From: Candidatus Saccharimonadales bacterium
GTDB taxonomy: Bacteria; Patescibacteriota; Saccharimonadia; Saccharimonadales; 2-12-FULL-41-12
Direction of reading: 5' to 3'
Assembly (NCBI GenBank): GCA_025451045.1
Contig: JANWLD010000001.1
Coordinates: forward strand, 471,468 to 535,467
DNA: 64,000 nt
Below are positions 6,201-52,072 of this stretch, in pieces. Position 1 is the stretch's first letter, and each line of letters starts with the position of its first letter. Below the pieces are notes generated by a model. It had not been told where the DNA came from. It was given only the letters and a program-made list of their open reading frames with translations, and did not search any database. Made by a program: the position numbers and the translations under genes.

Positions 6201-7089
6201 TTTTGAAGTTCGCGTACCGAAAGGAAAAGCATTCTTATCGGACATACCCGGCAAAATCGAGGTTTCTGAGGAAAATGACCAATACGTTGTCCAGGTAACT
6301 GATGATGAAGCCAAAGCCGCTAAACTGACTATTGGCGATAGGAATGTCAATGTAGCTTCCGCCGGCGAAGTTGCCGTCGGCGATGTTGTAGCGTCCGGCG
6401 AAGGCGGTGAGAACCCGCTGATAGCACCGGTTGCCGGCAAGGTTTCCCTAACAAAAAAGAACATCACCATCACTCCTGCCGGTCAAAGCGTGGTCAAATA
6501 CGACATTCCAACCTACAAGCAATTGCAGGTCAAAGACGGTGATATCGTTGAACCTGGCGACCGTTTGACGAACGGTTCCATCAATCTTCATGATTTGATG
6601 CGGCTGAAGGGGGTCGAGGCTACCCAGCGTTACATCATGAACGAGATTCTTCGGATTTTTGCCAGCCAAGGTCAGAATATCGCCGATAAACACCTTGAAA
6701 TCATCGTGAAACAAATGTTTTCACGGGTTCAGATAGAAGACGCCGGCGATAGTGAGTTCGTAACTGGTGATATTGTCAGCAAACTGGCGGTAGTCGAAAC
6801 CAACGAAGCTTTAGCTAAAGCCAAGAAAAAATCGGCCGTATTCAACCAACTGTTGCTCGGCATAACCAAAGCATCCTTGAGTACTGACTCATTCCTATCT
6901 GCCGCATCCTTCCAGGACACCACGCGCGTGCTTATTGCGGCCGCGACTAGCGGAAAAGTTGACAGCCTGTTTGGACTGAAGGAAAACGTGATTTTGGGCC
7001 GCCGTATTCCGGTTGGTACAGGCGTTCTTGAAGACGAAGAAGAGGAGCTGGAAACGCAGGAGACAGTTAGTCTTGAGGAAAACAGGTAA
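3265..7089 (+). CDS. rpoC: DNA-directed RNA polymerase subunit beta'
   Basis: 1274-aa ORF whose ATG directly follows the rpoB TAG. It contains the catalytic [12 protein letters not shown] motif and RAPSLHRLS. Confidence 0.97.
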
Positions 7090-12485: not shown

Positions 12486-13308
12486 TCCTCAGCTCCATTA
12501 CGAAATTCCGCATCGCTTGCTCAGGCGCGTCATGTCCAGTGTAAAGTTTTACCTGCTCATAGCCCTGGCTCAAATACATTTCAATGCCGGAAATTGTCTG
12601 CGCGCCGACTTTTTCAGCCTCTTTAAGCAAAACAGTCTCAATTGGTGAATACACAGCGTCAAAAACTATTTGGTCGGGCGTAATGTCGCTAACATCAATA
12701 GGCATTTGATCTTCCTGTCCGACAAAGCCGACCGAAGTAGCATTGCAGACTATGTCTGCATTTTTAATATTTTCCTGCTCACTCAATGATGCATATTTGC
12801 AGTTGAATTTTTCGGCCAGAACCTTTGCTTTCTCAGGAGTACGGTTATAAATAGTTACGTCGCAGCCTTTGTGGGTTAGTCCATAGACAAAAGCCTTTGC
12901 CGCGCCGCCTGCACCGATTACCGCTACTTTTTTACCTTTCAGCTCGGTGATTGCCTCCAGAGGTTTAACCGCGCCGACCCAATCGGTGTTGTAACCGGTC
13001 AAAACCCCGTCATCATTAACCACCGTATTGACCGCGCCGATTGCTTGCGCGTGCTCATCAATTTTGTCCAGATATGGCATGACTATTTCTTTATGCGGCA
13101 TGGTGCAAGTAGCGCCGCGGATTCCCATAGCCCGAACGCCCTTTATAAAATCTTCAATGTTTTCTGCTTTAACCAAGCAGGAAAGATAAATAAACTGGTC
13201 GTCTATACCGAGCTCTTTATAGACTTTGTTATAAATAATAGGCCCGATAGATTGCTTTATTGGGTCGCCAATGCCCAGACAGATTTTTGTAGTCGAATTA
13301 ACTCTCAT
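12475..13308 (-). CDS. aroE: Shikimate 5-dehydrogenase
   Basis: 277 aa with the Rossmann motif VAVIGAGGAAKA and a TCTMPHK-type substrate motif. It overlaps both neighbouring genes. Confidence 0.9.
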   Translation of the reverse strand: MRVNSTTKICLGIGDPIKQSIGPIIYNKVYKELGIDDQFIYLSCLVKAENIEDFIKGVRAMGIRGATCTMPHKEIVMPYLDKIDEHAQAIGAVNTVVNDDGVLTGYNTDWVGAVKPLEAITELKGKKVAVIGAGGAAKAFVYGLTHKGCDVTIYNRTPEKAKVLAEKFNCKYASLSEQENIKNADIVCNATSVGFVGQEDQMPIDVSDITPDQIVFDAVYSPIETVLLKEAEKVGAQTISGIEMYLSQGYEQVKLYTGHDAPEQAMRNFVMELRNAK

Positions 13309-15002
13309 GCAATTTCCAATTTTTCCATTATCTCATCAATGGCTTGGTTTGGAGAAATGGCAGAGGTGTCAATAATGAAATCTGCGTTCCTATAATATTT
13401 ATCTTTTCTTTTCTCCCAGACTTCATCCAGCTCGCCCAGCAAGCTGGGCTGGGTACTTAACTCCGGACGGTTCTTGTCGGTCCTGATACGCTGGGACAGT
13501 ATTCCTGCGTCAGCTTTCAAAAGTATTGATATAGAGTCTGGTTTGAACAGTTCCACGTTAGCCTGGTCTAAAACTATCCCGCCGCCGGATGAAATAACTG
13601 AGTTTGTATGTTTGCTAAGTTGCCGACAAGCCGCGGTTTCCAATTTTCTGAAGTGTTCCCAGCCATTTTCGAGCACGATATCACGGACTTTTTGTCCGTG
13701 TTTTTTCTCCAGGTACAAATCCATATCAATAAAATCCATCTTAAGCCTCTGGGCCAGAATTCTGCCGACGGTGGTCTTGCCGCCGCCGCGCATACCAATG
13801 AGCAAAATGTTTGAAAACGATTTGCTCGTGCGTTTCACAGTCGCTATTTTGGCTAATTCGTCCCAGAAACCGGGGAAGGTTTTATTAACGACAGCCGGAT
13901 TCATAATTCGCATTCCGGGGATTTTTGTACCGGCAACGGCAAAAGACATAGCTATGCGATGGTCGCCATAAGGGTTGATTAATGCATTTTTGGGCTTTCC
14001 GCCAAGGATTGTCAGGCTGTCTTTAGTCGCCGAGGTTTCAATACCCATCTTGGCCAGTTCATTTTGTACGGCGACTACTCGCTCTGTTTCTTTGATGCGT
14101 AGCGAAGCTATACCGTCAATCGTTGTTACGCCCTCTGTGAAGGCGGCTAGGGCAGCCAGTGTCATCGCCTGGTCCGGAAAATCTTCGGCATTAATGTTGG
14201 CCGGTAACTTACCTCCGGTTAATAAATCGACAAATTTTTTATCTCCTTGCTTTGAATCGGGATTTAGCCCTTTGACTTTTGTTTTAGAATTCGTCAATGC
14301 ATTAATTGCAAAGAAATACGCCGCACTGGAATAGTCGTCCTCTACTTCGTAATCTTTCGCCTGGTATTTTTGCGGCTTAATCTCGTAGCGTTGATAATTG
14401 TCATTTTTAACCTTAACTCCAAAATAACCCATGATATCAATCGTCATATCAATATACGGTTTGGATATTTGTTTTCCTTTTACTTCTATGACCAAGCCCT
14501 TTTCAAGTTTCGGGGCAATTAACATCAATGCCGAAAGATATTGGCTGCTGACATCGCCTTTCAAAGTAACCTTATACTCAGTAGGTTCGGAGCTGATAAT
14601 TTTCAGCGGTAAAAACCCGTCTTTGCCGAGGTACTCGATGTTTGCTCCGAGCTGACGCAATGCATCAACCAAATCTTTAATCGGACGTTTTTGCAGGCTT
14701 GCCGCGCCGGTTATCGTTTGCACACCTGGAGAAATACATGCCAGAGCCGTCATGAACCTGGCAGTCAGGCCGGATTCATTAGCATCCAGCTTAGTATCAT
14801 TATTTTTTAATGCCATAAGACAGTTTTGCATCGCAACCGTGTCCTCGCTGTCGAGTAGGTTTTTAATCTCAAATTTATTTTCGCATAGCGTGGAAATCAA
14901 AAGAGCCCTAAGGCTGTAACTTTTCGACCCCGGAACTTTAACAGTCGTCTCAACCGGTTTGTCCAGCGGCGAGACGCTGATTATGTCCAAACTGTTTTTC
15001 AT
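13305..15002 (-). CDS. aroA: Bifunctional EPSP synthase (N-terminal ~390 aa) fused to shikimate kinase (C-terminal ~170 aa)
   Basis: The N-terminal part is AroA-like (VPGSKSYSLRAL, GDHRIAMSFAV). The C-terminal part carries the Walker A motif LIGMRGGGKTTVGR and a shikimate-kinase-like sequence. It is a single 565-aa frame. Confidence 0.9.
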   Translation of the reverse strand: MKNSLDIISVSPLDKPVETTVKVPGSKSYSLRALLISTLCENKFEIKNLLDSEDTVAMQNCLMALKNNDTKLDANESGLTARFMTALACISPGVQTITGAASLQKRPIKDLVDALRQLGANIEYLGKDGFLPLKIISSEPTEYKVTLKGDVSSQYLSALMLIAPKLEKGLVIEVKGKQISKPYIDMTIDIMGYFGVKVKNDNYQRYEIKPQKYQAKDYEVEDDYSSAAYFFAINALTNSKTKVKGLNPDSKQGDKKFVDLLTGGKLPANINAEDFPDQAMTLAALAAFTEGVTTIDGIASLRIKETERVVAVQNELAKMGIETSATKDSLTILGGKPKNALINPYGDHRIAMSFAVAGTKIPGMRIMNPAVVNKTFPGFWDELAKIATVKRTSKSFSNILLIGMRGGGKTTVGRILAQRLKMDFIDMDLYLEKKHGQKVRDIVLENGWEHFRKLETAACRQLSKHTNSVISSGGGIVLDQANVELFKPDSISILLKADAGILSQRIRTDKNRPELSTQPSLLGELDEVWEKRKDKYYRNADFIIDTSAISPNQAIDEIMEKLEIA

Positions 15003-16736: not shown

Positions 16737-16849
16737 TAGCTGCGACCCAGCACCAAAATCTTTAAATTCCATAATCTGATTACAGACTACTTCATTCAGG
16801 ATTTGGTGCTAGACAGGCGCCGAAATAAAGATGTAGAATTTACATCGCA

Positions 16850-16879
16850 TTGACAGAGGTTAGCGTAACGTGCTAATCT
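16850..16879 (+). promoter_or_regulatory. Candidate internal promoter ahead of rplC
   Basis: TTGACA (16850-16855), an 18-nt spacer, then TAATCT (16874-16879), inside an unusually long 262-nt rpsJ-rplC spacer. Confidence 0.4.
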
Positions 16880-16998
16880 GTAATGACTGTTAATAAAACA
16901 TCGCGCATGGCGCGTCATGGAAGGTCGCCTCTAACAGGGGTAGAAACCACCGACCGCCATGATTTTATTGTCAGCTTAAATTAAAGGAGCAAGTAAGC

Positions 16999-17611: not shown

Positions 17612-18271
17612 ATGGCCAGCGTTACGTCTTATACTGCCGCAGGAGTCAAGTCTGGTGCTAAAGCTGCCTTGGATAAGAATGTATTTGGCCTAGAAGTCAA
17701 AAACCACGACCTGCTTGGATATGCCTACCAGTCTTATCTGGCTAATGGTCGGGTAAATCTCGCCAAGACTAAAACCAGAGGTGAAGTTGTCGGTAGTACC
17801 AAAAAGCCATGGAAGCAAAAAGGTACGGGCCGGGCACGTTTTGGTTCCCGATATAACCCTATCTGGCGCGGCGGAGGTATCACTTTCGGCCCGACCGGCA
17901 ATGAGAATTACACCAAGAAACTTAACCTTAAAGCCAAGCGTCTGGCTACCAAACAGGCTTTGAGTTTGGCTGCTACCGAAGATAGAATCAAAATTATCGA
18001 CAAATTTGACGGCGGCGATGGCAAAGTCAAGAAAACGGCGGCCCTGCTGAGTAAGATTGAAGCTAAAGGCAAGGTGTTGTTGGTGGTGGATAGCAAAGAC
18101 AAAATGATAAATCGCTCTACCGGTAATATCGCGGGCGTTAAAGTAACAACTGGAAAATATTTGAACGTTTACGACATTCTTAATTCAGACAACGTAGTTA
18201 TTACCAAGAAATCACTTGATGCCATTTCTGAGTGGCTGGCTGACAAGACCAAGAAAGCGGAGGCCAAATGA
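17612..18271 (+). CDS. rplD: 50S ribosomal protein L4
   Basis: 219-aa L4-like translation (KPWKQKGTGRAR) in the conserved operon position. Confidence 0.95.
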   Translation: MASVTSYTAAGVKSGAKAALDKNVFGLEVKNHDLLGYAYQSYLANGRVNLAKTKTRGEVVGSTKKPWKQKGTGRARFGSRYNPIWRGGGITFGPTGNENYTKKLNLKAKRLATKQALSLAATEDRIKIIDKFDGGDGKVKKTAALLSKIEAKGKVLLVVDSKDKMINRSTGNIAGVKVTTGKYLNVYDILNSDNVVITKKSLDAISEWLADKTKKAEAK

Positions 18272-18807
18272 GCAAAATCATGGCCTTAAAACCGCGGATG
18301 AGTGAAAAGACCTATGCGCAAAGCCATGCGACTAACACCTATACTTTTGATGTCCCTAAAAACGCTAATAAGCTAGAGGTTAGCCGAGCAGTGGCTGTGC
18401 AGTTCAAAGTAACTGTTGAAGACGTGCGGATTGCTATCCTCAAGGGTAAGCAAGCCCGTTCTATAAGGATCGGCGGTACCCGTAAAGTTATTACCGGTAA
18501 ACGTCCTGATATCAAGAAAGCTTATGTCCGGATAAAAAACGGTGAAACAATTCCTATTTTTGCCAGTATCGACGAAGCCGAGGAAAAGGCCAAAAAAGCC
18601 GAGGCTAAAGCAGCCAAGAAAGATTCGTCTGATAAACCGGCTAAAACTCCTGATAAATCTGCTGCAAAGGCTAAAACAGCAGCCGCTAAGAAGCCTGAAA
18701 AAACGCCTAAGAAAAACACCAAGCCGACTAAGACTGTCGTTGAAGAAAAGAAAGAAGAAATCCTGAAGCCGAAATCCCGATTCAATTTCCTCCGGAGGGG
18801 TAAATAG
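18268..18807 (+). CDS. rplW: 50S ribosomal protein L23 with ~80-aa K/A/E-rich C-terminal extension
   Basis: The first ~97 aa are L23-like and in the conserved position. The tail from about 18559 is low-complexity (AEEKAKKAEAKAAKK...). Confidence 0.9.
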   Translation: MSKIMALKPRMSEKTYAQSHATNTYTFDVPKNANKLEVSRAVAVQFKVTVEDVRIAILKGKQARSIRIGGTRKVITGKRPDIKKAYVRIKNGETIPIFASIDEAEEKAKKAEAKAAKKDSSDKPAKTPDKSAAKAKTAAAKKPEKTPKKNTKPTKTVVEEKKEEILKPKSRFNFLRRGK

Positions 18808-19667: not shown

Positions 19668-19961
19668 ATGAACGGTGACTATACTTCTATTCATGAAATT
19701 GCTAGGTTGCATACAGAACCTTTTGTAAAGGGATTGGATGCTGGTTTAGAAGCAATAAAGCAGCGTGAAGAATTAAGCAGTCCTATTACTTTTGATGATG
19801 TGTCAGCTAGGTCAGATGTTTTTCACATTGCTACTAATAGATTGGCAATGAGCGACGAAATACCCGAGTCTTACGGGCAGACTAAATACGAAATCATGGG
19901 TATGGGAGTTATATCTGCTCTTGAAGAAGCCGCTATAAGAAGTAAAGGAAATGTAGGGTAA
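19668..19961 (+). CDS. Hypothetical small acidic protein (97 aa), family C member 2, inserted between rplB and rpsS
   Basis: AGGAG lies 8 nt upstream, inside the rplB 3' end. The ATG is 3 nt after the rplB stop and the stop is 4 nt before the rpsS ATG. By eye it is a paralog of ORF 8064-8318. Confidence 0.55.
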
Positions 19962-20624: not shown

Positions 20625-21253
20625 TGGGCCAGAAAGTAAATCCGATTAGTTTCCGTCTTCAGGTAAACAAACACTGGAAGAGCAAATGGTTCGCTAATAA
20701 AAAAGACTATGCGGAGTATCTGACACAAGATTTGACGGTCAGGCGGATGATAGTCAAAGAACTGGGCTCCCGCGCGGCTATAAACAAAGTTGACATTGAA
20801 CGCTCGCCTAACTTGGCCACTGTTACCATCACCACGGCCAAAGCCGGTGTTGTTATCGGCAGAGGCGGTACAGGCGCCCAAATACTAAAAGACCGAATTG
20901 AGAAAATCTACGGCGTACCGGTCAGGATTAACATTGAAGAAATCAAAAAAGCGGAACTTTACGCGAAGCTTGTCGCTGAGAATATTGCCCATCAGCTGGA
21001 AAGAAGAATTTCCTTCCGCCGGGCTATTAAACAATCTGCGGCCGCGACCATGCGGGCTGGAGCAAAGGGTGTACGTATCGAAGTAGCCGGCCGTCTTAAT
21101 GGCGCGGATATGAGCCGCCGCGAAAAAGTGGTTGAAGGCAGCGTGCCATTACACACTTTGCGTGCCGATATCGATTACTCGGGTGTCAGGGCCCGCACTA
21201 ATGCCGGTATCATTGGCGTGAAAGTTTGGATTTATAAAGGAGAGGTGCTCTGA
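20624..21253 (+). CDS. rpsC: 30S ribosomal protein S3
   Basis: 209-aa S3 translation (MGQKVNPISFRL..., a KH domain, GRLNGADMSR). Confidence 0.97.
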   Translation: MGQKVNPISFRLQVNKHWKSKWFANKKDYAEYLTQDLTVRRMIVKELGSRAAINKVDIERSPNLATVTITTAKAGVVIGRGGTGAQILKDRIEKIYGVPVRINIEEIKKAELYAKLVAENIAHQLERRISFRRAIKQSAAATMRAGAKGVRIEVAGRLNGADMSRREKVVEGSVPLHTLRADIDYSGVRARTNAGIIGVKVWIYKGEVL

Positions 21254-21378
21254 TGTTCCGCTTCACTACACACCAGGTTATAGGTTACAGGTTACAGGTT
21301 ATAGTTAAGACAAACCATCTAGCCCCTTGCACCTATAGCCTGATCCCTAAAGCGACCGAAGGGAGCTTTCCATGCTGA
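21253..21378 (+). repeat. Family A structured repeat, copy A1 (divergent), containing an open 41-codon mini-cistron
   Basis: The ATG overlaps the rpsC TGA (TGATG). The frame is open to a TGA at 21376-21378, overlapping the rplP ATG (21372) by 7 nt. Peptide: [41 protein letters not shown]. It is homologous to the copies at 24072, 25606 and 29631. Confidence 0.85.
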
Positions 21379-21788
21379 TTCCGAAACGCCAGAAGCACCG
21401 ACGAGTGATGAAAGGTCGTATCAAAGGCCCTGCTACCAGTGGCAATACCATTGCCTTTGGCAGCTATGCGCTGCAGTCTATGGGCCAAGACCGGGTTACC
21501 AGCCGCCAGATAGAATCAGCTCGCCAGGCGATGACCCGCTATATCAAACGAGGCGGTAAGATCTGGATAAGGATTTTCCCTCATACTCCTGTTACTAAAA
21601 AACCGCTGGGCCTTAAGATGGGCGGCGGCAAAGGCTCTCCTGAATACTTTGTAGCAAAGGTACGCAAAGGTACAGTATTGTTTGAAATGCAAGGCGTTTC
21701 CGAGGAAACAGCCCGCGAAGCCATGAGGCTGGCTGCCCACAAATTACCGATAAAGACCAGGTTTATTGTCAGAGAGGGCGAAACATGA
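21372..21788 (+). CDS. rplP: 50S ribosomal protein L16
   Basis: 138-aa L16 translation ([11 protein letters not shown]...). Confidence 0.97.
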
Positions 21789-21919
21789 ATCCCGTAGTAG
21801 ATCTCCTAGAACTGAAGTTGAGCAAGCTGTTTTTGTATGGCCGAGTGTCGGTACGTTATTCAGTTTTGTATATTTTTAATCTTCCTTATGGAATAACTAG
21901 GAGGCTCACTACAGGATGA
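21785..21919 (+). repeat. Family B structured repeat, copy B1, containing an open 44-codon mini-cistron
   Basis: ATGA overlap with the rplP stop and ATGA overlap with the rpmC start. Peptide: [44 protein letters not shown]. Terminal arms 21791-21809 and 21897-21915 are complementary, and the 3' arm contains the rpmC AGGAGG. Confidence 0.85.
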
Positions 21920-22116: not shown

Positions 22117-22509
22117 ATGGGTAAGACATTAGTAGGGACTGTAAGTTCAGTCGCGCCGAATAAGACCATAGTAATTGCTGTTAGTACCCGAAAAACCCAT
22201 CCTATTTACAAAAAACAGTACAAAGTCACTACTAAATTCATGGCTCATGACGAAGAAAATTCGTGTAAAGTCGGTGACCTTGTCAGCATTGTCGAAACGC
22301 GGCCGATTTCTGCTAGAAAACGCTTCAAATTGGAAAAGATTTTGGAACACGCAAGGTTGAGCAAAGATGATTTGAAGGTTATGAATACGGACGAACCCGA
22401 AAAGAAAGCAGACAAGCCGTCAGAAAAAGTGGAGAAGAAGGATTCAACCGAAAAAACTGAGGATAAAGCGGATAAAAAGGCTTCATCGGACAAGGAAAAG
22501 GGCAAATGA
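22117..22509 (+). CDS. rpsQ: 30S ribosomal protein S17 with K/D/E-rich C-terminal tail
   Basis: S17 core (GTVSS...KTIVIAV...YKKQYKV), followed by a low-complexity tail of about 50 aa. Confidence 0.93.
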
Positions 22510-23796: not shown

Positions 23797-24066
23797 ATGG
23801 CTAAGAAATCAATCGTTAACAGGGACGAAAAACGTAAGAAGATGATAGCTAAATATGCCAAAAAACGAGCTGAAATGAAACAGGCTGGAGACCTTGTCGG
23901 CCTTCATCTTCTGCCTCGTAATTCATCCCCTACCCGGTTCAAGAACCGCTGTAGTGAGACCGGCCGCCCGCGAGCCTACATGCGCACCTTCGGCTTATCG
24001 AGGATTTCTTTTAGGGAACACGCGTCAAAAGGTGAAATACCCGGAGTAACGAAAGGAAGTTGGTAA
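23797..24066 (+). CDS. rpsN: 30S ribosomal protein S14 (long, Cys-less form)
   Basis: 89-aa S14 translation ending ...GVTKGSW, with no CxxC pairs. Confidence 0.95.
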
Positions 24067-24071
24067 TATAG

Positions 24072-24191
24072 ATGTTCCGCTTCACTACACATCAGGTTAC
24101 AGGTTATAGGTTACAGGTTATAGCCAAGATAAACTTTCTAACCCCTAGCCCCTATAACCTAACCCCTAAAGCGACAGAAAGGAGCACCTAA
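24072..24191 (+). repeat. Family A structured repeat, copy A2, containing an open 39-codon mini-cistron
   Basis: The ATG lies 5 nt after the rpsN TAA, and the TAA at 24189-24191 abuts the rpsH ATG. Peptide: MFRFTTHQVTGYRLQVIAKINFLTPSPYNLTPKATERST. There is a perfect 10-bp stem between 24101-24110 and 24151-24160. Confidence 0.88.
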
Positions 24192-24587
24192 ATGGTATCC
24201 ACAGATCCAGTTTCAGACATGCTGACCAGGCTGCGCAATGCGATTGCCGTTGGCAAGGCTGATGTCAGTTTGCCACATTCGAACATCAAGCAGTCGGTCG
24301 CTGAACTGCTAAAGAAAAGCGGCTTCATCGACGAAGTAAAAGTTGACGGAACCGGCATTGATAAGAAAGTGCTGATAAAAATTAATCCAAAGAGCGAAAA
24401 CGCGCGCATTACCGAGATAGCGCGACTGAGCCGTCCCGGCCGGCGCTTGTACGCCAAGGCCAAGGACATTCCAGTGGTCATGCAGGGCCGCGGACTGGTC
24501 ATAATTTCTACCTCCAAAGGTATTATGACCGGTGAAGAAGCTAAAAAAGCCAAAATCGGCGGAGAGTTAATCTGCAAGGTTTATTAA
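24192..24587 (+). CDS. rpsH: 30S ribosomal protein S8
   Basis: 131-aa S8 translation (DPVSDMLTRLRNA). Confidence 0.97.
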   Translation: MVSTDPVSDMLTRLRNAIAVGKADVSLPHSNIKQSVAELLKKSGFIDEVKVDGTGIDKKVLIKINPKSENARITEIARLSRPGRRLYAKAKDIPVVMQGRGLVIISTSKGIMTGEEAKKAKIGGELICKVY

Positions 24588-25120: not shown

Positions 25121-25255
25121 ATGAGTCCCGTAGTAGATCTCCAAGAACATTCGTTGAATAAACTGTATTTAACTGATAAGCTGTCTATCCATAGTCCAGC
25201 TTTATTAATTTCTAATGCTCTTTGCGGAGCAACTTGGAGGCTCACTACGGGATGA
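25121..25255 (+). repeat. Family B structured repeat, copy B2, containing an open 44-codon mini-cistron
   Basis: The ATG directly follows the rplF TAA, and the TGA overlaps the rplR ATG (ATGA). Peptide: MSPVVDLQEHSLNKLYLTDKLSIHSPALLISNALCGATWRLTTG. Terminal arms 25126-25145 and 25233-25252 are complementary. Confidence 0.85.
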
Positions 25256-25605: not shown

Positions 25606-25725
25606 ATGTTCCGCTTCACTACACATCAGGTTACAGGTTATAGGTTACAGGTTATAGCCAAGATAAACTTTCTAACCCCTAGCCCCTATAACCTAACCCC
25701 TAAAGCGAAAGAATGGAGCGCATAA
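25606..25725 (+). repeat. Family A structured repeat, copy A3, containing an open 39-codon mini-cistron
   Basis: The ATG directly follows the rplR TAG, and the TAA overlaps the rpsE ATG (TAATG). Peptide: MFRFTTHQVTGYRLQVIAKINFLTPSPYNLTPKAKEWSA. A 115-nt stretch is identical to A2. Confidence 0.88.
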
Positions 25726-29177: not shown

Positions 29178-29630
29178 ATGGCAGAAACTGATACCAAAAC
29201 TAAGGAAGAAGTAACTACCGAAACTACGGACGTTGAAGCTAAACCGGCGGCCAAGCCGAAGAAGAAAAAGGTTAAACGCAATGTACCGCTGGGCCAAGTT
29301 CATGTACTGGCGACCTTCAATAACACCATCGTTACAGTTACTGACTCAAACGGCGGCGTGTTGACAAATTCTAGTGCCGGCGCTTGTGGCTTTCGCGGCA
29401 GCAAAAAAGGCACGGCTTATGCCGCGCAGGTTGCTGCTGAAAAAGCAGTTGAAGAAGCAAAACAACGTTTTGGACTTAGCAAAGTACATGTCTTTATCAA
29501 AGGTATCGGTCTGGGGCGCGAGGCAGCTGTCAGAGTTTTAGGTTCAGCTAACATCGCCGTCGAGTCCATACAGGACGTTACCGGCGTGCCGCATGGCGGC
29601 GTACGGCCGAGAAAGGCAAGAAGAGTCTAG
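29178..29630 (+). CDS. rpsK: 30S ribosomal protein S11 with ~30-aa charged N-terminal extension
   Basis: S11 core (GQVHVLATFNNTIVTVTD...GFRGSKKGT). Confidence 0.95.
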   Translation: MAETDTKTKEEVTTETTDVEAKPAAKPKKKKVKRNVPLGQVHVLATFNNTIVTVTDSNGGVLTNSSAGACGFRGSKKGTAYAAQVAAEKAVEEAKQRFGLSKVHVFIKGIGLGREAAVRVLGSANIAVESIQDVTGVPHGGVRPRKARRV

Positions 29631-29753
29631 ATGATGTTCCGCTTCACTACACATCAGGTTACAGGTTATAGGTTACAGGTTATAGCTAAGACAAACCCTC
29701 TAACCCCTAGCCCCTATAACCTAACCCCTAAAGCGACCGGAGGGAGCTTCTGA
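29631..29753 (+). repeat. Family A structured repeat, copy A4, containing an open 40-codon mini-cistron
   Basis: ATGATG directly follows the rpsK TAG, and the TGA overlaps the rpsD ATG (TGATG). Peptide: MMFRFTTHQVTGYRLQVIAKTNPLTPSPYNLTPKATGGSF. Confidence 0.88.
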
Positions 29754-47477: not shown

Positions 47478-47534
47478 TAAATAAATTTGTGGGAGTCCGC
47501 CGTGGCGGACGCAAGCACCACGAAAGGAGAAACC

Positions 47535-48596
47535 ATGGCGGAAGCCAAAAAGACAGCTAAAAGCGGACAGCTAAAAGCGGACAGTAAAAAAACTAAAAAG
47601 ATAGAGAAGTTAAAACCCGGAGCAAAAGAAAAACTAAAGAAAGCCTCGGGAAAAGTAGAAACCTCTGTTAAAGAAGAAAAGCTAACAGATAAGGCCGTAA
47701 AAAAAGCAGTAGTATCTGACACCGCAGAGGCAGAAAAACTCGCCACAGAGCCTGAAAACCCGCCAAAAACGGCAAAGGCGGGCAAAAGAAGCGCTAAATC
47801 CATAGCTGATGCAGAGGAAAAACAGGCTAAAGAAGAACGAAAGAAAGAAGATACGCCCGAAGAACTCTCCAAGCTTAAAATCCAGCAGAAACCGCCGCGT
47901 TCAAAACTGGAACGCCGCAGTAAGAATTATCGTGAAAAAGCCAAACTTATAGATAAGTCCAAAGATTATAAGCTTGAGGAAGCACTGGATTTAGCCTGTA
48001 AAACTTCTTCGGTCAAATTTGATGCCACAATTGAGCTGCACATCAGGTTGAATGTCGATCCTAAGCAAGCTGACCAGAACATTCGTGACAGTATAGTCCT
48101 GCCTGCCGGCAGCGGCAAAAGTGTCCGGATTGCAGTTTTTGCCGACGAGATAAATGCCAAAAAAGCCAAATCGGCCGGTGCTGAGATAGTCGGCGAAGAT
48201 GAGATCACCAATCTTATAGACAAAGGCCAGATTGAATTTGACGTTTTAATAGCTATGCCTAACCTGATGGTTAAACTGGCTAAGTACGCCAAAGTCCTGG
48301 GGCCTAAAGGCTTAATGCCCAATCCGAAAAGCGGCACCGTCACAGCGGATGTAGCCAAAGCGGTCGAGCAAGCCAAGGCCGGCAAGATTGAATACCGGGT
48401 AGATGGCGGCGGCATAATACACACCGGTATCGGCAAAGTCAGTTTCGGGACAAAAAAACTGCAAAATAACGCTCAAGTGCTAATAAGCTCGATTAAGCAA
48501 AATAAACCGGCATCCATTAAAGGCAGTTATATGCTTTCGATTTATGCGACGACAACCATGGGACCGTCGATTCCGGTCGAACTTTCGGGTTTGTAA
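47535..48596 (+). CDS. rplA: 50S ribosomal protein L1 with ~125-aa K/E/A-rich N-terminal extension
   Basis: The L1 core begins near ...RSKNYREKAKLIDKSKDYKLEEALDL...DPKQADQNIR. The ATG at 47535 follows AAAGGAG, and the GTG at 47487 is the track alternative. Confidence 0.9.
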   Translation: MAEAKKTAKSGQLKADSKKTKKIEKLKPGAKEKLKKASGKVETSVKEEKLTDKAVKKAVVSDTAEAEKLATEPENPPKTAKAGKRSAKSIADAEEKQAKEERKKEDTPEELSKLKIQQKPPRSKLERRSKNYREKAKLIDKSKDYKLEEALDLACKTSSVKFDATIELHIRLNVDPKQADQNIRDSIVLPAGSGKSVRIAVFADEINAKKAKSAGAEIVGEDEITNLIDKGQIEFDVLIAMPNLMVKLAKYAKVLGPKGLMPNPKSGTVTADVAKAVEQAKAGKIEYRVDGGGIIHTGIGKVSFGTKKLQNNAQVLISSIKQNKPASIKGSYMLSIYATTTMGPSIPVELSGL

Positions 48597-49576: not shown

Positions 49577-51877
49577 ATGGCGGAAAAAAAGGGAACATTC
49601 ATCGTCTTGGAAGGTACCGACGGTGCCGGCAAGTCTACCCAATTTCGTTTGCTTTCGGATAAACTCAAGAAAAACGGCTATAAGGTCGAGCAGTTCCAAT
49701 TTCCGCAGTACGACGAGCCGTCCAGCTACTTTATAAAACAGTATTTAGCCGGCAATCTTGGCTCATCCGAAGAGATTGGCCCGTATACCGCTTCTATGTT
49801 TTTCGCGCTTGATAGGTTCCGGGCGGCTGTAAAAATTCAAAAGGCATTAGACGAGGGTAGGGTCGTCATTGCCGATCGCTTCACCGGCTCCAACATGGCT
49901 CATCAGGGGGTATTGTTTGATAATGCCGAGCAACGCCGAGGCTTTTTCATTTGGCTGGATCAGATAGAGTTTGAAATGTTTAAAATACCGCGGCCTGACA
50001 TATCACTGGTGCTTCGAGTACCGGCCGAAGTCGCGGCTAAGAATGTCGACAAACGCGGTAATAAAAAGGATATCCATGAGCGCAGCCTGAAGCATATGCA
50101 AAGGTCTGTAGAGGTTTATGATAACCTTTGCCAGTTGTTTCCCAAAGACTTCAAACAGATTGACTGCGCGCGCTCCGGCGAGATATTGGACGAAAAACTG
50201 ATAAGCGACCGGGTTTGGGAAACAGCTTTGGCTTACATTCCAGACGGTGAAAAATTAAAAAAAAAGATAAACGGAAATATTAAACAAGATAATGCTTATT
50301 TATCAAAAGACGGCGGCGTTACAAGGATTACCGAAGAAGGGCATCGTTATCTTGAACCGCTGCTGACTAACAGTAGGAGCGATGTCTACGCTTTTACCGA
50401 CAAGCTATCATCCCAGACCATTGCCGCCGCCATGGCCCGGCTGAGCCGCCGCGGTGATGATATGCGCGTAACCTTGTTGGATGAGTTCGCAAGCGTAGCC
50501 GGCAAGGACGAGCAGCTGCTTAAACGCGTAATTACCGCGTACGGCGATGATTCCGTGCAACAACTGGTCGGCCAGCATGTAGTGGTAGAAAATGCGAGTA
50601 ACTTGCTGACCAAGAAGCTTGAATGGGGCCGCCTAGCCGCTTATCTGGAACAATCAACCCGCTATATCTATTTTGATAAGAAAAATGAGCTAGGGAACTA
50701 TCGATACCATCGCCTGCCCTACCTCAAAAAAGACATCGAGAAAACTTATAACGCTACGCTGGACAGGATTTTCGATATTTACTCAAATATGGTAGCAAAA
50801 TTGACTGATTACGTTCGTCAACATTCGTCTGTCCCGGAGGATGAGCGTGATATCGCTTGGAAAGGCGCGACCCGTGCCCAAGCCTGCGATGCTGCCCGCT
50901 CGGTTTTGCCTGTCGCTACGACTGCCACAGTTGGTATATTTGCTTCAGGCCAAGCCCTGGAAAGCTTGATTATGCACCTGCTCAGCGATGAATTGGCCGA
51001 ATCCCACGAAGTCGGACGACTGCTTTTAGCCGAAGGGCGTAAAGTCGTCCCGGCCTTTTTAGAGCGGGTTGATATTAACGAACGCGGCGTTCTGGCCATG
51101 GGCTACCGTGCCTTCACCCGAGAAAATACGAAAGATATAGCCAATGAACTTTTGCCAAACAAGATAAGCGGCGATTTTGACAGTGTCAATTTATCAGATG
51201 TCTGGCCAAAGAATGAGCTGGATATAGTCCCTGATATCTTATACGAACACAGCTCGCTTTCACTGAATGAGATAAAAGACGAGGTAGAAAAGCTATCGAT
51301 TGCCAAGAAGAAAAAAGTCATTCAAAGCTACATTGGCGAGCGATATAACCGCCGGCACAAACCCGGCCGGGCGTTTGAAAAAATACATTATTCGTGGGAT
51401 ATCCTGTGCGATTACGGTATTTTCCGTGATTTGCAAAGGCATCGTATGGTTGACGACCTCGAGTGGCAAATGTTGACGCCGCGCTATGGCTATGAAGTCC
51501 CTGAGCTGGTCGTTGACGCGGGACTAACAGAAGCGTTTGAAAAATGTTTTGACCTAAGCCTTTCGCTTTATAGCCTGATGCAGAAGAATGGCTATGAGCA
51601 GGAAGCGCAGTACGCGACTCTGCTAGGCCACCGGATGCGCTGGAAAATGACTTTCAACGCCCGTGAGGCGTATCATTTTATAGAGTTGCGAAGTAGTCCG
51701 CAGGGACATCCGGCTTACCGCAAAATTGCCCAACAAATCTATGAAAAAATCGCCGAAGTCCATCCGATAATCGCCGACGGGATGAAGTTTATCAATCAGG
51801 ACGAAAACGCCGAATTAACCCGTTTGGCCGCCGAACGCTACACCCAGAAAAAACTCGCCCAACTCGATATGGGTTGA
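49577..51877 (+). CDS. Fusion protein: thymidylate kinase (N-terminal ~215 aa) + flavin-dependent thymidylate synthase ThyX (long, ~550 aa)
   Basis: The Tmk part carries FIVLEGTDGAGKSTQ and DRF. The ThyX part carries LQRHRMV...TPRYG, ELRSSPQGHPAYR, and an upstream degenerate ThyX-like half (...EQSTRYIYF). It is one uninterrupted 766-aa frame. Confidence 0.85.
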   Translation: MAEKKGTFIVLEGTDGAGKSTQFRLLSDKLKKNGYKVEQFQFPQYDEPSSYFIKQYLAGNLGSSEEIGPYTASMFFALDRFRAAVKIQKALDEGRVVIADRFTGSNMAHQGVLFDNAEQRRGFFIWLDQIEFEMFKIPRPDISLVLRVPAEVAAKNVDKRGNKKDIHERSLKHMQRSVEVYDNLCQLFPKDFKQIDCARSGEILDEKLISDRVWETALAYIPDGEKLKKKINGNIKQDNAYLSKDGGVTRITEEGHRYLEPLLTNSRSDVYAFTDKLSSQTIAAAMARLSRRGDDMRVTLLDEFASVAGKDEQLLKRVITAYGDDSVQQLVGQHVVVENASNLLTKKLEWGRLAAYLEQSTRYIYFDKKNELGNYRYHRLPYLKKDIEKTYNATLDRIFDIYSNMVAKLTDYVRQHSSVPEDERDIAWKGATRAQACDAARSVLPVATTATVGIFASGQALESLIMHLLSDELAESHEVGRLLLAEGRKVVPAFLERVDINERGVLAMGYRAFTRENTKDIANELLPNKISGDFDSVNLSDVWPKNELDIVPDILYEHSSLSLNEIKDEVEKLSIAKKKKVIQSYIGERYNRRHKPGRAFEKIHYSWDILCDYGIFRDLQRHRMVDDLEWQMLTPRYGYEVPELVVDAGLTEAFEKCFDLSLSLYSLMQKNGYEQEAQYATLLGHRMRWKMTFNAREAYHFIELRSSPQGHPAYRKIAQQIYEKIAEVHPIIADGMKFINQDENAELTRLAAERYTQKKLAQLDMG

Positions 51878-51982
51878 GTCGCAAGGCCAAAGGTGTTAAA
51901 ATATTGATAGTTACCCGAAGACAGCGACGTTGTGAAAACACTTGAAAAAGTCGCCGAGGCGAATAAATAAGCTCTCAATAAG

Positions 51983-52008
51983 TCTTTGGTTTACGCCAAA
52001 GATTTTTT
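51983..52008 (+). terminator. Hairpin plus T6 in the rplJ leader (candidate L10-leader attenuator)
   Basis: TCTTTGG (51983-51989), loop TTTACG, CCAAAGA (51996-52002), then TTTTTT (52003-52008), located 65 nt upstream of the rplJ ATG. Confidence 0.55.
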
Positions 52009-52072
52009 AATGGTAACTGCTTTTGACCAAGGTCGAAGTCACAAGTTAACAGATAAAAGGAGAAGCCGCACT

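Follow-up and report, generated by a model that had tools for sequence, protein, structure and literature searches.

Short palindromic repeats at ribosomal protein gene junctions of a Saccharimonadales bacterium form mini-cistrons with the geometry of translational coupling

Rickettsia palindromic elements (RPE; Ogata et al. 2000) have been described as selfish DNA that is tolerated by staying in frame, and some copies of the ERIC repeat carry open reading frames (ORFs) (PMC10969869). In translationally coupled gene pairs such as rpmI-rplT, phage f1 VII/IX and MS2 coat/lysis, the stop of one cistron overlaps or abuts the start of the next and the Shine-Dalgarno (SD) sequence lies inside the upstream cistron, with re-initiation and RNA unfolding both established as coupling routes (PMC12548453). 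Here we describe family A, a ~120-nt element found in four copies (c1 to c4, 118-125 nt) at ribosomal protein (r-protein) gene junctions of a Candidatus Saccharimonadales bacterium. All four lie on the + (sense) strand of one 64-kb stretch of contig JANWLD010000001.1 (positions 471,468 to 535,467), hereafter the window, and each stands between the stop of the upstream gene and the start of the downstream gene as a separate ORF. The reading that we favour, with moderate confidence, is that family A is a palindromic repeat of the Saccharimonadales, small and non-autonomous, which spreads by copy-and-insert and is tolerated by way of a coupling cassette placed at start codons.

As we read it, family A is like the RPE in being a ~100-150-nt palindromic selfish repeat of a small, gene-dense genome, patchy among relatives, with an open frame compatible with translation and a peptide without known function. 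Unlike the RPE, which insert inside genes as in-frame fusions, it forms its own cistron between genes, with its own start, SD and stop, and none of the four copies is an in-frame insertion inside a host protein-coding gene; the two are also unrelated in sequence and belong to different phyla. The ERIC/IRU, Correia and REP/BIME/REPIN elements share with family A that they are imperfect palindromes, co-transcribed in operons, multi-copy and variable between strains. However, ERIC/IRU, Correia and REP elements sit in untranslated spacers in either orientation and act by RNase III/E cleavage or mRNA stabilisation, none of them has been described as rebuilding stop/start coupling, and none is similar to family A in sequence. 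The GTAG plus palindrome architecture of REP and REPIN elements, which are usually accompanied by a RAYT gene, is missing from family A, and no Y1 transposase is found among the window ORFs scanned. The coupled gene pairs have the same overlapping or abutting geometry as family A, but here the upstream cistron would be an inserted mobile element whose product has no evident function and which turns one coupled junction into two.

The window holds the rpoBC, str, S10, spc, alpha and L13-S9 gene arrays, with rpmD absent between rpsE and rplO. Few known gene arrays are as conserved and as tightly packed as the S10-spc-alpha operons, and it is unexpected that one such array should hold seven lineage-specific inserts, six of them repeats that form coupled mini-cistrons (family A and an unrelated repeat, family B, described below). 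The four copies of family A stand on the + strand at the positions that the original prediction, a reading of the letters alone, had given them (Table 1). They are 85-98% identical in pairwise comparison; over 114 aligned nt, c2 differs from c3 at 2 positions and from c4 at 7, and c1 differs from the other three at 12-17. A 29-nt core pattern has exactly four sites in the window, with 0 expected from shuffles, and neither repeat finding nor nhmmer returned a fifth copy in the 64 kb; nhmmer likewise detected no further diverged copy in roughly 60 fetched loci.

On re-reading, the stop/start geometry described earlier for the 5' and 3' ends proved the same in all four copies, and the downstream SD that had been placed in the tail of the element is present as GGAG 6-7 nt before every downstream ATG. 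Only the stop of c1 enters the next gene, in a different frame. The TAATG at the 3' end of c3 does contain the start of rpsE, at a position that matches the N-termini of relatives, the mechanical ORF start at 25713 being wrong; rplR similarly starts at 25252 and not at the TTG at 25222. The further idea that each 3' end is tuned to its junction holds for the geometry; the apparent tuning can be put down, at least in part, to native junction sequence and copied flank.

Table 1. Features of families A and B in the window (coordinates count from its first nucleotide)
Feature	Position	Strand	Description
c1	21253..21378	+	rpsC-rplP junction; 41 codons; TGATG overlaps rpsC stop; stop 7 nt inside rplP (ATG 21372)
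c2	24072..24191	+	rpsN-rpsH junction; 39 codons; TAA-TATAG-ATG at 5' end; TAA abuts rpsH ATG at 24192
c3	25606..25725	+	rplR-rpsE junction; 39 codons; TAG directly followed by ATG at 5' end; TAATG at 3' end overlaps rpsE ATG at 25725
c4	29631..29753	+	rpsK-rpsD junction; 40 codons; TAG directly followed by ATGATG at 5' end; TGATG at 3' end overlaps rpsD ATG at 29753
c2 5' module hairpin	24071..24093	+	GATGT/ACATC, loop TCCGCTTCACTAC; holds the mini-ORF start codon
18-mer in c2 5' module	24074-24091	+	GTTCCGCTTCACTACACA
c2 interior hairpin	24095..24164	+	10-bp core AGGTTATAGG (24101-24110) / CCTATAACCT (24151-24160)
c2 3' module	24168..24191	+	AAAGCGACAGAAAGGAGC, then CACCTAA
c2 Shine-Dalgarno	24181-24184	+	GGAG, 7 nt before rpsH ATG
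c2 mini-ORF stop	24189-24191	+	TAA
Family B copy 1	21785..21919	+	rplP-rpmC junction; 44-codon mini-cistron; direct repeat ATGAA (rpmC start)
Family B copy 2	25121..25255	+	rplF-rplR junction; 44-codon mini-cistron; direct repeat ATGAG (rplR start 25252)

Each copy of family A is built of a 5' module, an interior and a 3' module. The 5' module, ATGTTCCGCTTCACTACACAYCAGG, can form a small hairpin with a GATGT/ACATC stem. In the interior, tandem heptamers build an imperfect hairpin, with (GGTTAYA)x4 as its left arm and CTAACCC-like units as its right; in c1, coordinated changes in both arms produce a 12-bp stem in a new register. The 3' module, AAAGCGACNGAANGGAGC, is followed by 5-7 variable nt.

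The operons of relatives, obtained through S8 homologues, indicate that the copies of family A are lineage-specific insertions and not ancestral, since close relatives have tight, empty junctions. In L042, L043, L045 and L047, whose neighbouring proteins are 80-92% identical to those of the window, no element is found at any of the four junctions. Three of these junctions measure 0-9 nt, and the fourth, rplR-rpsE, measures 0 nt in three of the relatives and 26 nt in L043 by the called rpsE start. The rpsN-rpsH junction is also empty (1 nt) in the closest S8 relatives, L051-L055, whose S8 is 87-89% identical. Within the window genome itself, the presence of nearly identical copies at junctions that are not homologous speaks for mobility, and family A has multiplied there recently.

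A related element is found in L025, a 4.4-kb contig with proteins 68-77% identical to those of the window and a GC content of 57% (46% in the window). At its rpsK-rpsD junction (L025:2477-2599) lies a 40-codon element that equals c4 in total length, begins with 28 nt identical to those of c4 and closes with the same 3' module (GCGACTGAAAGGAGC; 3' end GCGACNGAAAGGAGC). The interior is wholly different from that of the window copies and is again a hairpin, and the start and stop are spaced as in coupled cistrons, as they are in all four window copies. Four relatives of L025 (L056, L057, L059 and L060, with S4 90-96% identical) have a junction of 3-22 nt there and no element, from which it appears that rpsK-rpsD has gained the element independently in two lineages. 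L025 was the only true relative in exact scans of genome and metagenome contigs with the 18-mer of the 5' module (Table 1), the other matches sharing the 18-mer only. The 18-mer had no exact match in viral contigs, a plasmid BLAST search with the 5' module gave nothing informative, and a six-frame search with a hidden Markov model of the peptide found no diverged copies in roughly 60 fetched loci.

The L025 element also bears on whether the repeated junction sequences could be an artefact of assembly or a chimera. The host is known from metagenome-type assemblies and the exact S8 protein is recorded for one 538-kb contig only, which would suit such an origin. Yet every copy stands between flanks unique to it, carries substitutions of its own and keeps its reading context intact, a related element stands in the independent L025 data set, and assemblies from Logan, JGI, ENA and NCBI contain related ORFs. 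We therefore regard an artefact, which the original prediction had named as something that would undo it, as scarcely credible.

The flanks of two copies give some indication of how family A spreads. Upstream of c2 and c3 the same 15 nt are found, TTGGTAATATAGATG. Relatives show that TTGGTAAT is native to both the end of rpsN (GSW and stop) and the end of rplR (GLVI and stop), and that the ATAG after it is native to rplR only and foreign to the rpsN-rpsH junction. Because ATAG is native only to the rplR end in relatives, we take the 5-nt TATAG spacer of c2 to be the rplR tail, carried along from a c3-type donor. A flank carried with c2 suggests copying by recombination or microhomology and not clean cut-and-paste, family A probably copying itself by recombination through microhomology. 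We further note that TAATG is duplicated at the L025 element and that c4 has an imperfect AGATG/TGATG pair.

In several of these traits family A resembles a miniature inverted-repeat transposable element (MITE), being short and non-autonomous, with four copies and empty orthologous sites. It shares with MITEs its size and its copying behaviour; it differs in having variable 3' ends, a donor flank in one copy and no target-site duplication of fixed length, whereas family B, with a clean 5 bp, fits the MITE description.

All copies of family A are open in one frame only, over 39-41 codons, and the other five frames hold 2-6 stops each; the three sense frames of the window copies have (0, 4, 4), (0, 4, 3) or (0, 4, 5) stops. 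In dinucleotide shuffles frame 0 stays open in 5-8% of cases for the window copies, 22% for the L025 element and 3-4% for each copy of family B. The joint chance is ~1e-4 to 1e-5, taken as the product of these fractions for sequences that are largely independent. In both arm variants the third heptamer unit retains a C that prevents an in-frame TAG. These patterns argue that the open frame has been selected or filtered for in family A, and the earlier description of the copies as mini-cistrons finds support in the single open frame and in the coupling geometry.

The peptide itself tells a different story. The L025 element encodes an unrelated interior peptide of the same length with the same ends. 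The 28-nt 5' end has 0 synonymous changes between the window and L025, against 9 differences and an identical peptide in the first 30 nt of rpsD. Among the window copies the ratio of nonsynonymous to synonymous polymorphism (pN/pS) is 0.65-1.3, and the codon index of the mini-ORFs is 0.63-0.69, compared with 0.71-0.84 in real genes and 0.57-0.68 in controls read out of frame. Given this unrelated interior, the lack of synonymous change in the 5' end, a pN/pS near 1 and codon usage like that of non-coding sequence, the encoded peptide is probably a by-product and not the selected product. The peptides have no Pfam or NCBIfam family at E<=10. The four family A peptides and the L025 peptide are absent as exact sequences from a collection of 15 billion proteins, and a word-based protein search with the c4 peptide had no match.

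When the c4 peptide served as query in an exhaustive HMMER search, at least eight further clusters of 39-42-aa ORFs did emerge, 55-72% identical over their full length. Each ORF represents one cluster at 50% identity, and the contigs of origin (Logan, JGI, ENA and NCBI) measure up to 73 kb. A single indel occurs in their alignment, whose consensus is ..RF..HQV.GYRLQV......L.P..YNL.PKA.GGS. These clusters speak for a family of microprotein genes, in which a ~40-aa peptide, for example a ribosome-associated factor, would be the functional product and be kept in multiple copies in r-protein operons. That view is served by the near absence of indels, by the uniquely open frame and by conservative substitutions (Y/F, Q/E/K, S/T). 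However, the conserved residues are the translation of four AGGTT and four CCTA motifs that recur every 7 nt and so pass through all three codon phases, and on this ground we read the conservation across the clusters as acting on nucleotides. The C-terminal G-G-S is the translated SD, and one member, P0255, is frameshifted near its C-terminus and still ends at 42 aa. With the motif entirely missing from the L025 variant, with the pN/pS and codon usage given above, and with no trace of the gene in close relatives or of its family in Pfam and NCBIfam, we hold a microprotein to be quite unlikely. The N-termini of the other family members suggest that the 18-mer is not kept exactly.

At the opposite extreme, family A could be a mobile repeat in which the ORF is an accident and is not translated, the downstream genes initiating de novo on the GGAG of the element. 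The element does supply a well-spaced SD, the source annotation left the mini-ORFs of c1-c4 uncalled, and the window copies are young and offer few independent observations of the open frame. But an open frame recurs in the window copies, in the different interior of L025, in both copies of family B and in the eight database clusters, with the low joint chance given above, and the left ATG stands at a native start served by an SD, where initiation would be hard to avoid. We consider an incidental ORF distinctly improbable.

The ends of the element indicate how the open frame might make family A tolerable, as the reading that we favour proposes. The left ATG has taken the place of the native start codon and with it has inherited both the native upstream SD and the coupling with the preceding stop. 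At the right end an SD, a spacer and an ATG are set out anew, with a stop at or near that ATG. Having finished the upstream r-protein gene, ribosomes would begin again at the mini-ORF and read through the hairpin. Their passage would keep the hairpin melted, and the C-rich, G-poor right arm would stay covered by ribosomes so that Rho, if the host has it, could not load. Termination on or beside the following AUG would then let the ribosomes re-initiate at it. Two coupled junctions would take the place of one, the stoichiometry of the operon would be preserved, and the peptide would be a by-product of the relay.

A domesticated cis-acting RNA would account for some of the same features in another way, with the ends and the hairpin forming a host-serving signal in the operon mRNA and the open frame being secondary. 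Such a signal could be a processing site for RNase III or another enzyme, a stabiliser, or the site of a regulator, at four junctions; Correia and ERIC elements work in this manner (PMC10969869). The conservation of the 5' and 3' modules in L025, where the interior has been replaced by another hairpin, is in keeping with an RNA function, as are the sense orientation of all copies and the coordinated arm changes that give c1 its 12-bp stem. On the other hand, the lack of the element at all four junctions in close relatives means that it is dispensable for operon function. The hairpin is weak and stronger in antisense, Rfam has no match, and a role confined to RNA leaves the unique open frame and the stop/start geometry unexplained. 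We judge a domesticated RNA signal unlikely.

Several observations nevertheless weigh against a mobile repeat tolerated through coupling. As regards mobility, the terminal complementarity of family A is limited to TGTTCC/GGAGCA (5 of 6 nt), only ATG is common to both flanks with no clean target duplication beyond it, the last 5-7 nt at the 3' end differ in every copy, and the window ORFs scanned against Pfam include neither a transposase nor a recombinase gene. As regards structure, the interior hairpin has only modest stability (z -0.8 to -2.7 overall, -2.3 to -2.7 in the window copies), and the antisense strand gives the better fold. The SD of family A has an unpaired probability of 0.31-0.50, against 0.19-0.67 at native junctions; these values are not lower than the native ones, so that SD sequestration was rejected as the main mechanism of family A and termination-reinitiation is favoured. 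The translation of the mini-ORFs on which the reading builds is inferred. Finally, the motif HQV.GYRLQV...L.P..YNL.PK shared by the eight clusters could equally mean selection on the peptide, protein databases carry an ascertainment bias in that copies not called as ORFs are invisible in them, and the DNA evidence for family A comes from two lineages.

Family B lends support to the same principle. Its two 135-nt elements have ~20-bp terminal inverted repeats (15/20 matching) and 5-bp direct repeats that are the first 5 nt of the displaced gene, and relatives are empty at both sites. Each copy is open over 44 codons in one frame only. Folding z-scores are -2.7 and -5.8, and the next SD is hidden in the closing helix (unpaired probability 0.11), a trait shared with coupled gene pairs in which the upstream ribosome must open a helix around the SD. 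No Rfam or Pfam match was found for family B. Its sequence makes it a clear case of an insertion at a start codon whose duplication would itself create the mini-cistron. Since it is unrelated in sequence to family A, the common mini-cistron design would be convergent; an 8-nt sequence that occurs in both families, TCACTACA, is at about chance expectation. We also entertain, as a speculative extension that is rather unlikely, that families A and B are widespread elements of Patescibacteria that home to coupled start codons with their own cassette, by machinery that reads the 18-mer hairpin loop.

If the favoured reading is right, selfish DNA could colonise essential operons by keeping the hand-over of ribosomes intact rather than by avoiding genes, which would extend to gene junctions the idea of selfish DNA inside genes that was developed for Rickettsia. 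The window would then offer a natural experiment on how much extra sequence translational coupling tolerates, and, if targeting is active, family A would be a compact and portable intercistronic coupling module. There are practical consequences as well: the 39-44-codon ORFs of these elements are called inconsistently, break short-read assemblies of candidate phyla radiation genomes and could be mistaken for new small proteins.

The earlier statement that family A belongs to no recognised family is borne out by Rfam, Pfam, NCBIfam and the literature searched, by sequence and by topic, which held no prior description of such an element. Rfam gave no match at the gathering threshold on the elements when the whole window was searched, and at E<=10 only chance-level models of microRNAs, small nucleolar RNAs and frameshift elements. 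Self-cleaving ribozymes and a preQ1-like hairpin were rejected, having no covariance model support. The consensus boxes of integron attC sites are R''(RYYYAAC)...R'(GTTRRRY) around an imperfect palindrome. An attC identity was rejected on box order, which is AAC...GTT in attC; the arms of family A, judged by eye, read GTT...AAC on both strands. Flavo-1 (RF01705) and attC-like hairpins share the 18-mer loop with family A, and the whole element does not match Flavo-1.

The 18-mer has exact matches at 16 loci in 596 Gb, about the chance expectation, and is the hairpin loop of 14 or more distinct families drawn from several phyla, with stems that differ from case to case. Examples among L001-L041 are L002:2002-2019, L007:2611-2628, L008:1173-1190, L012:274-291, L014:3410-3427, L026:4936-4953 and L032:3421-3438. 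The hosts include Gammaproteobacteria (in attC-like cassette arrays), Flavobacteria, Cloacimonadota, Planctomycetota and others. In Flavobacteria the 18-mer is the apical loop of a Flavo-1 hit, in a metagenome-assembled genome of Cloacimonadota it lies in an 82-nt tandem satellite, and some loci resemble VCR-type integron attC sites by eye. These hairpins are almost all intergenic, most of them on the same strand as the flanking genes where this could be judged. Mobilisation of the Y1/IS200 type was considered and rejected: a Y1 transposase gene (PF01797, 120 aa, L003:1805-2167, minus strand) lies 98 nt from one 18-mer hairpin and is absent from ten other neighbouring ORFs, so that its position in L003 is probably coincidental.

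The heptamer pattern (AGGTTAY)n has 50 matches in viral contigs. Several of these arrays are palindromes with complementary arms, like the interior of family A and without its 5' and 3' modules (L088:1231-1297, L103:4335-4421 and 6752-6826, L104:1384-1469, and others in L108 and L087).

Other junctions of the window also hold extra sequence. A 97-codon ORF at 19668-19961 (P0242, called in the source annotation) lies 3 nt from rplB and 4 nt from rpsS. Relatives lack it, with 3-10 nt between the two genes. It matches nothing in Pfam or NCBIfam and may be a third kind of coupled insert. The rpsJ-rplC spacer is 262 nt long in the window (16737-16998), and relatives have different unannotated ORFs of 217, 238 or 606 aa between the same genes (L043:2705-3421, L045:2682-3335 and L049:1200-3020), so that this junction looks like an insertion hot spot in the clade.

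Several r-proteins are longer than in close relatives, namely L23 (179 vs 124 aa, 18268-18807), S17 (130 vs 104 aa, 22117-22509) and S11 (150 vs 134 aa, 29178-29630), and the ORF with L1 has 369 aa (47487-48596), of which the Pfam domain covers residues 172-360 only. Extensions or mis-starts could account for these long ORFs. Two fused genes are present, one joining thymidylate kinase and ThyX domains (49577-51877, 766 aa) and one joining EPSP synthase and shikimate kinase (13305-15002, minus strand, 565 aa). An L10 leader (RF00557) at 51897-52017, upstream of rplJ, slightly exceeds the gathering score; Rfam recognises no other r-protein regulatory RNA in the window.

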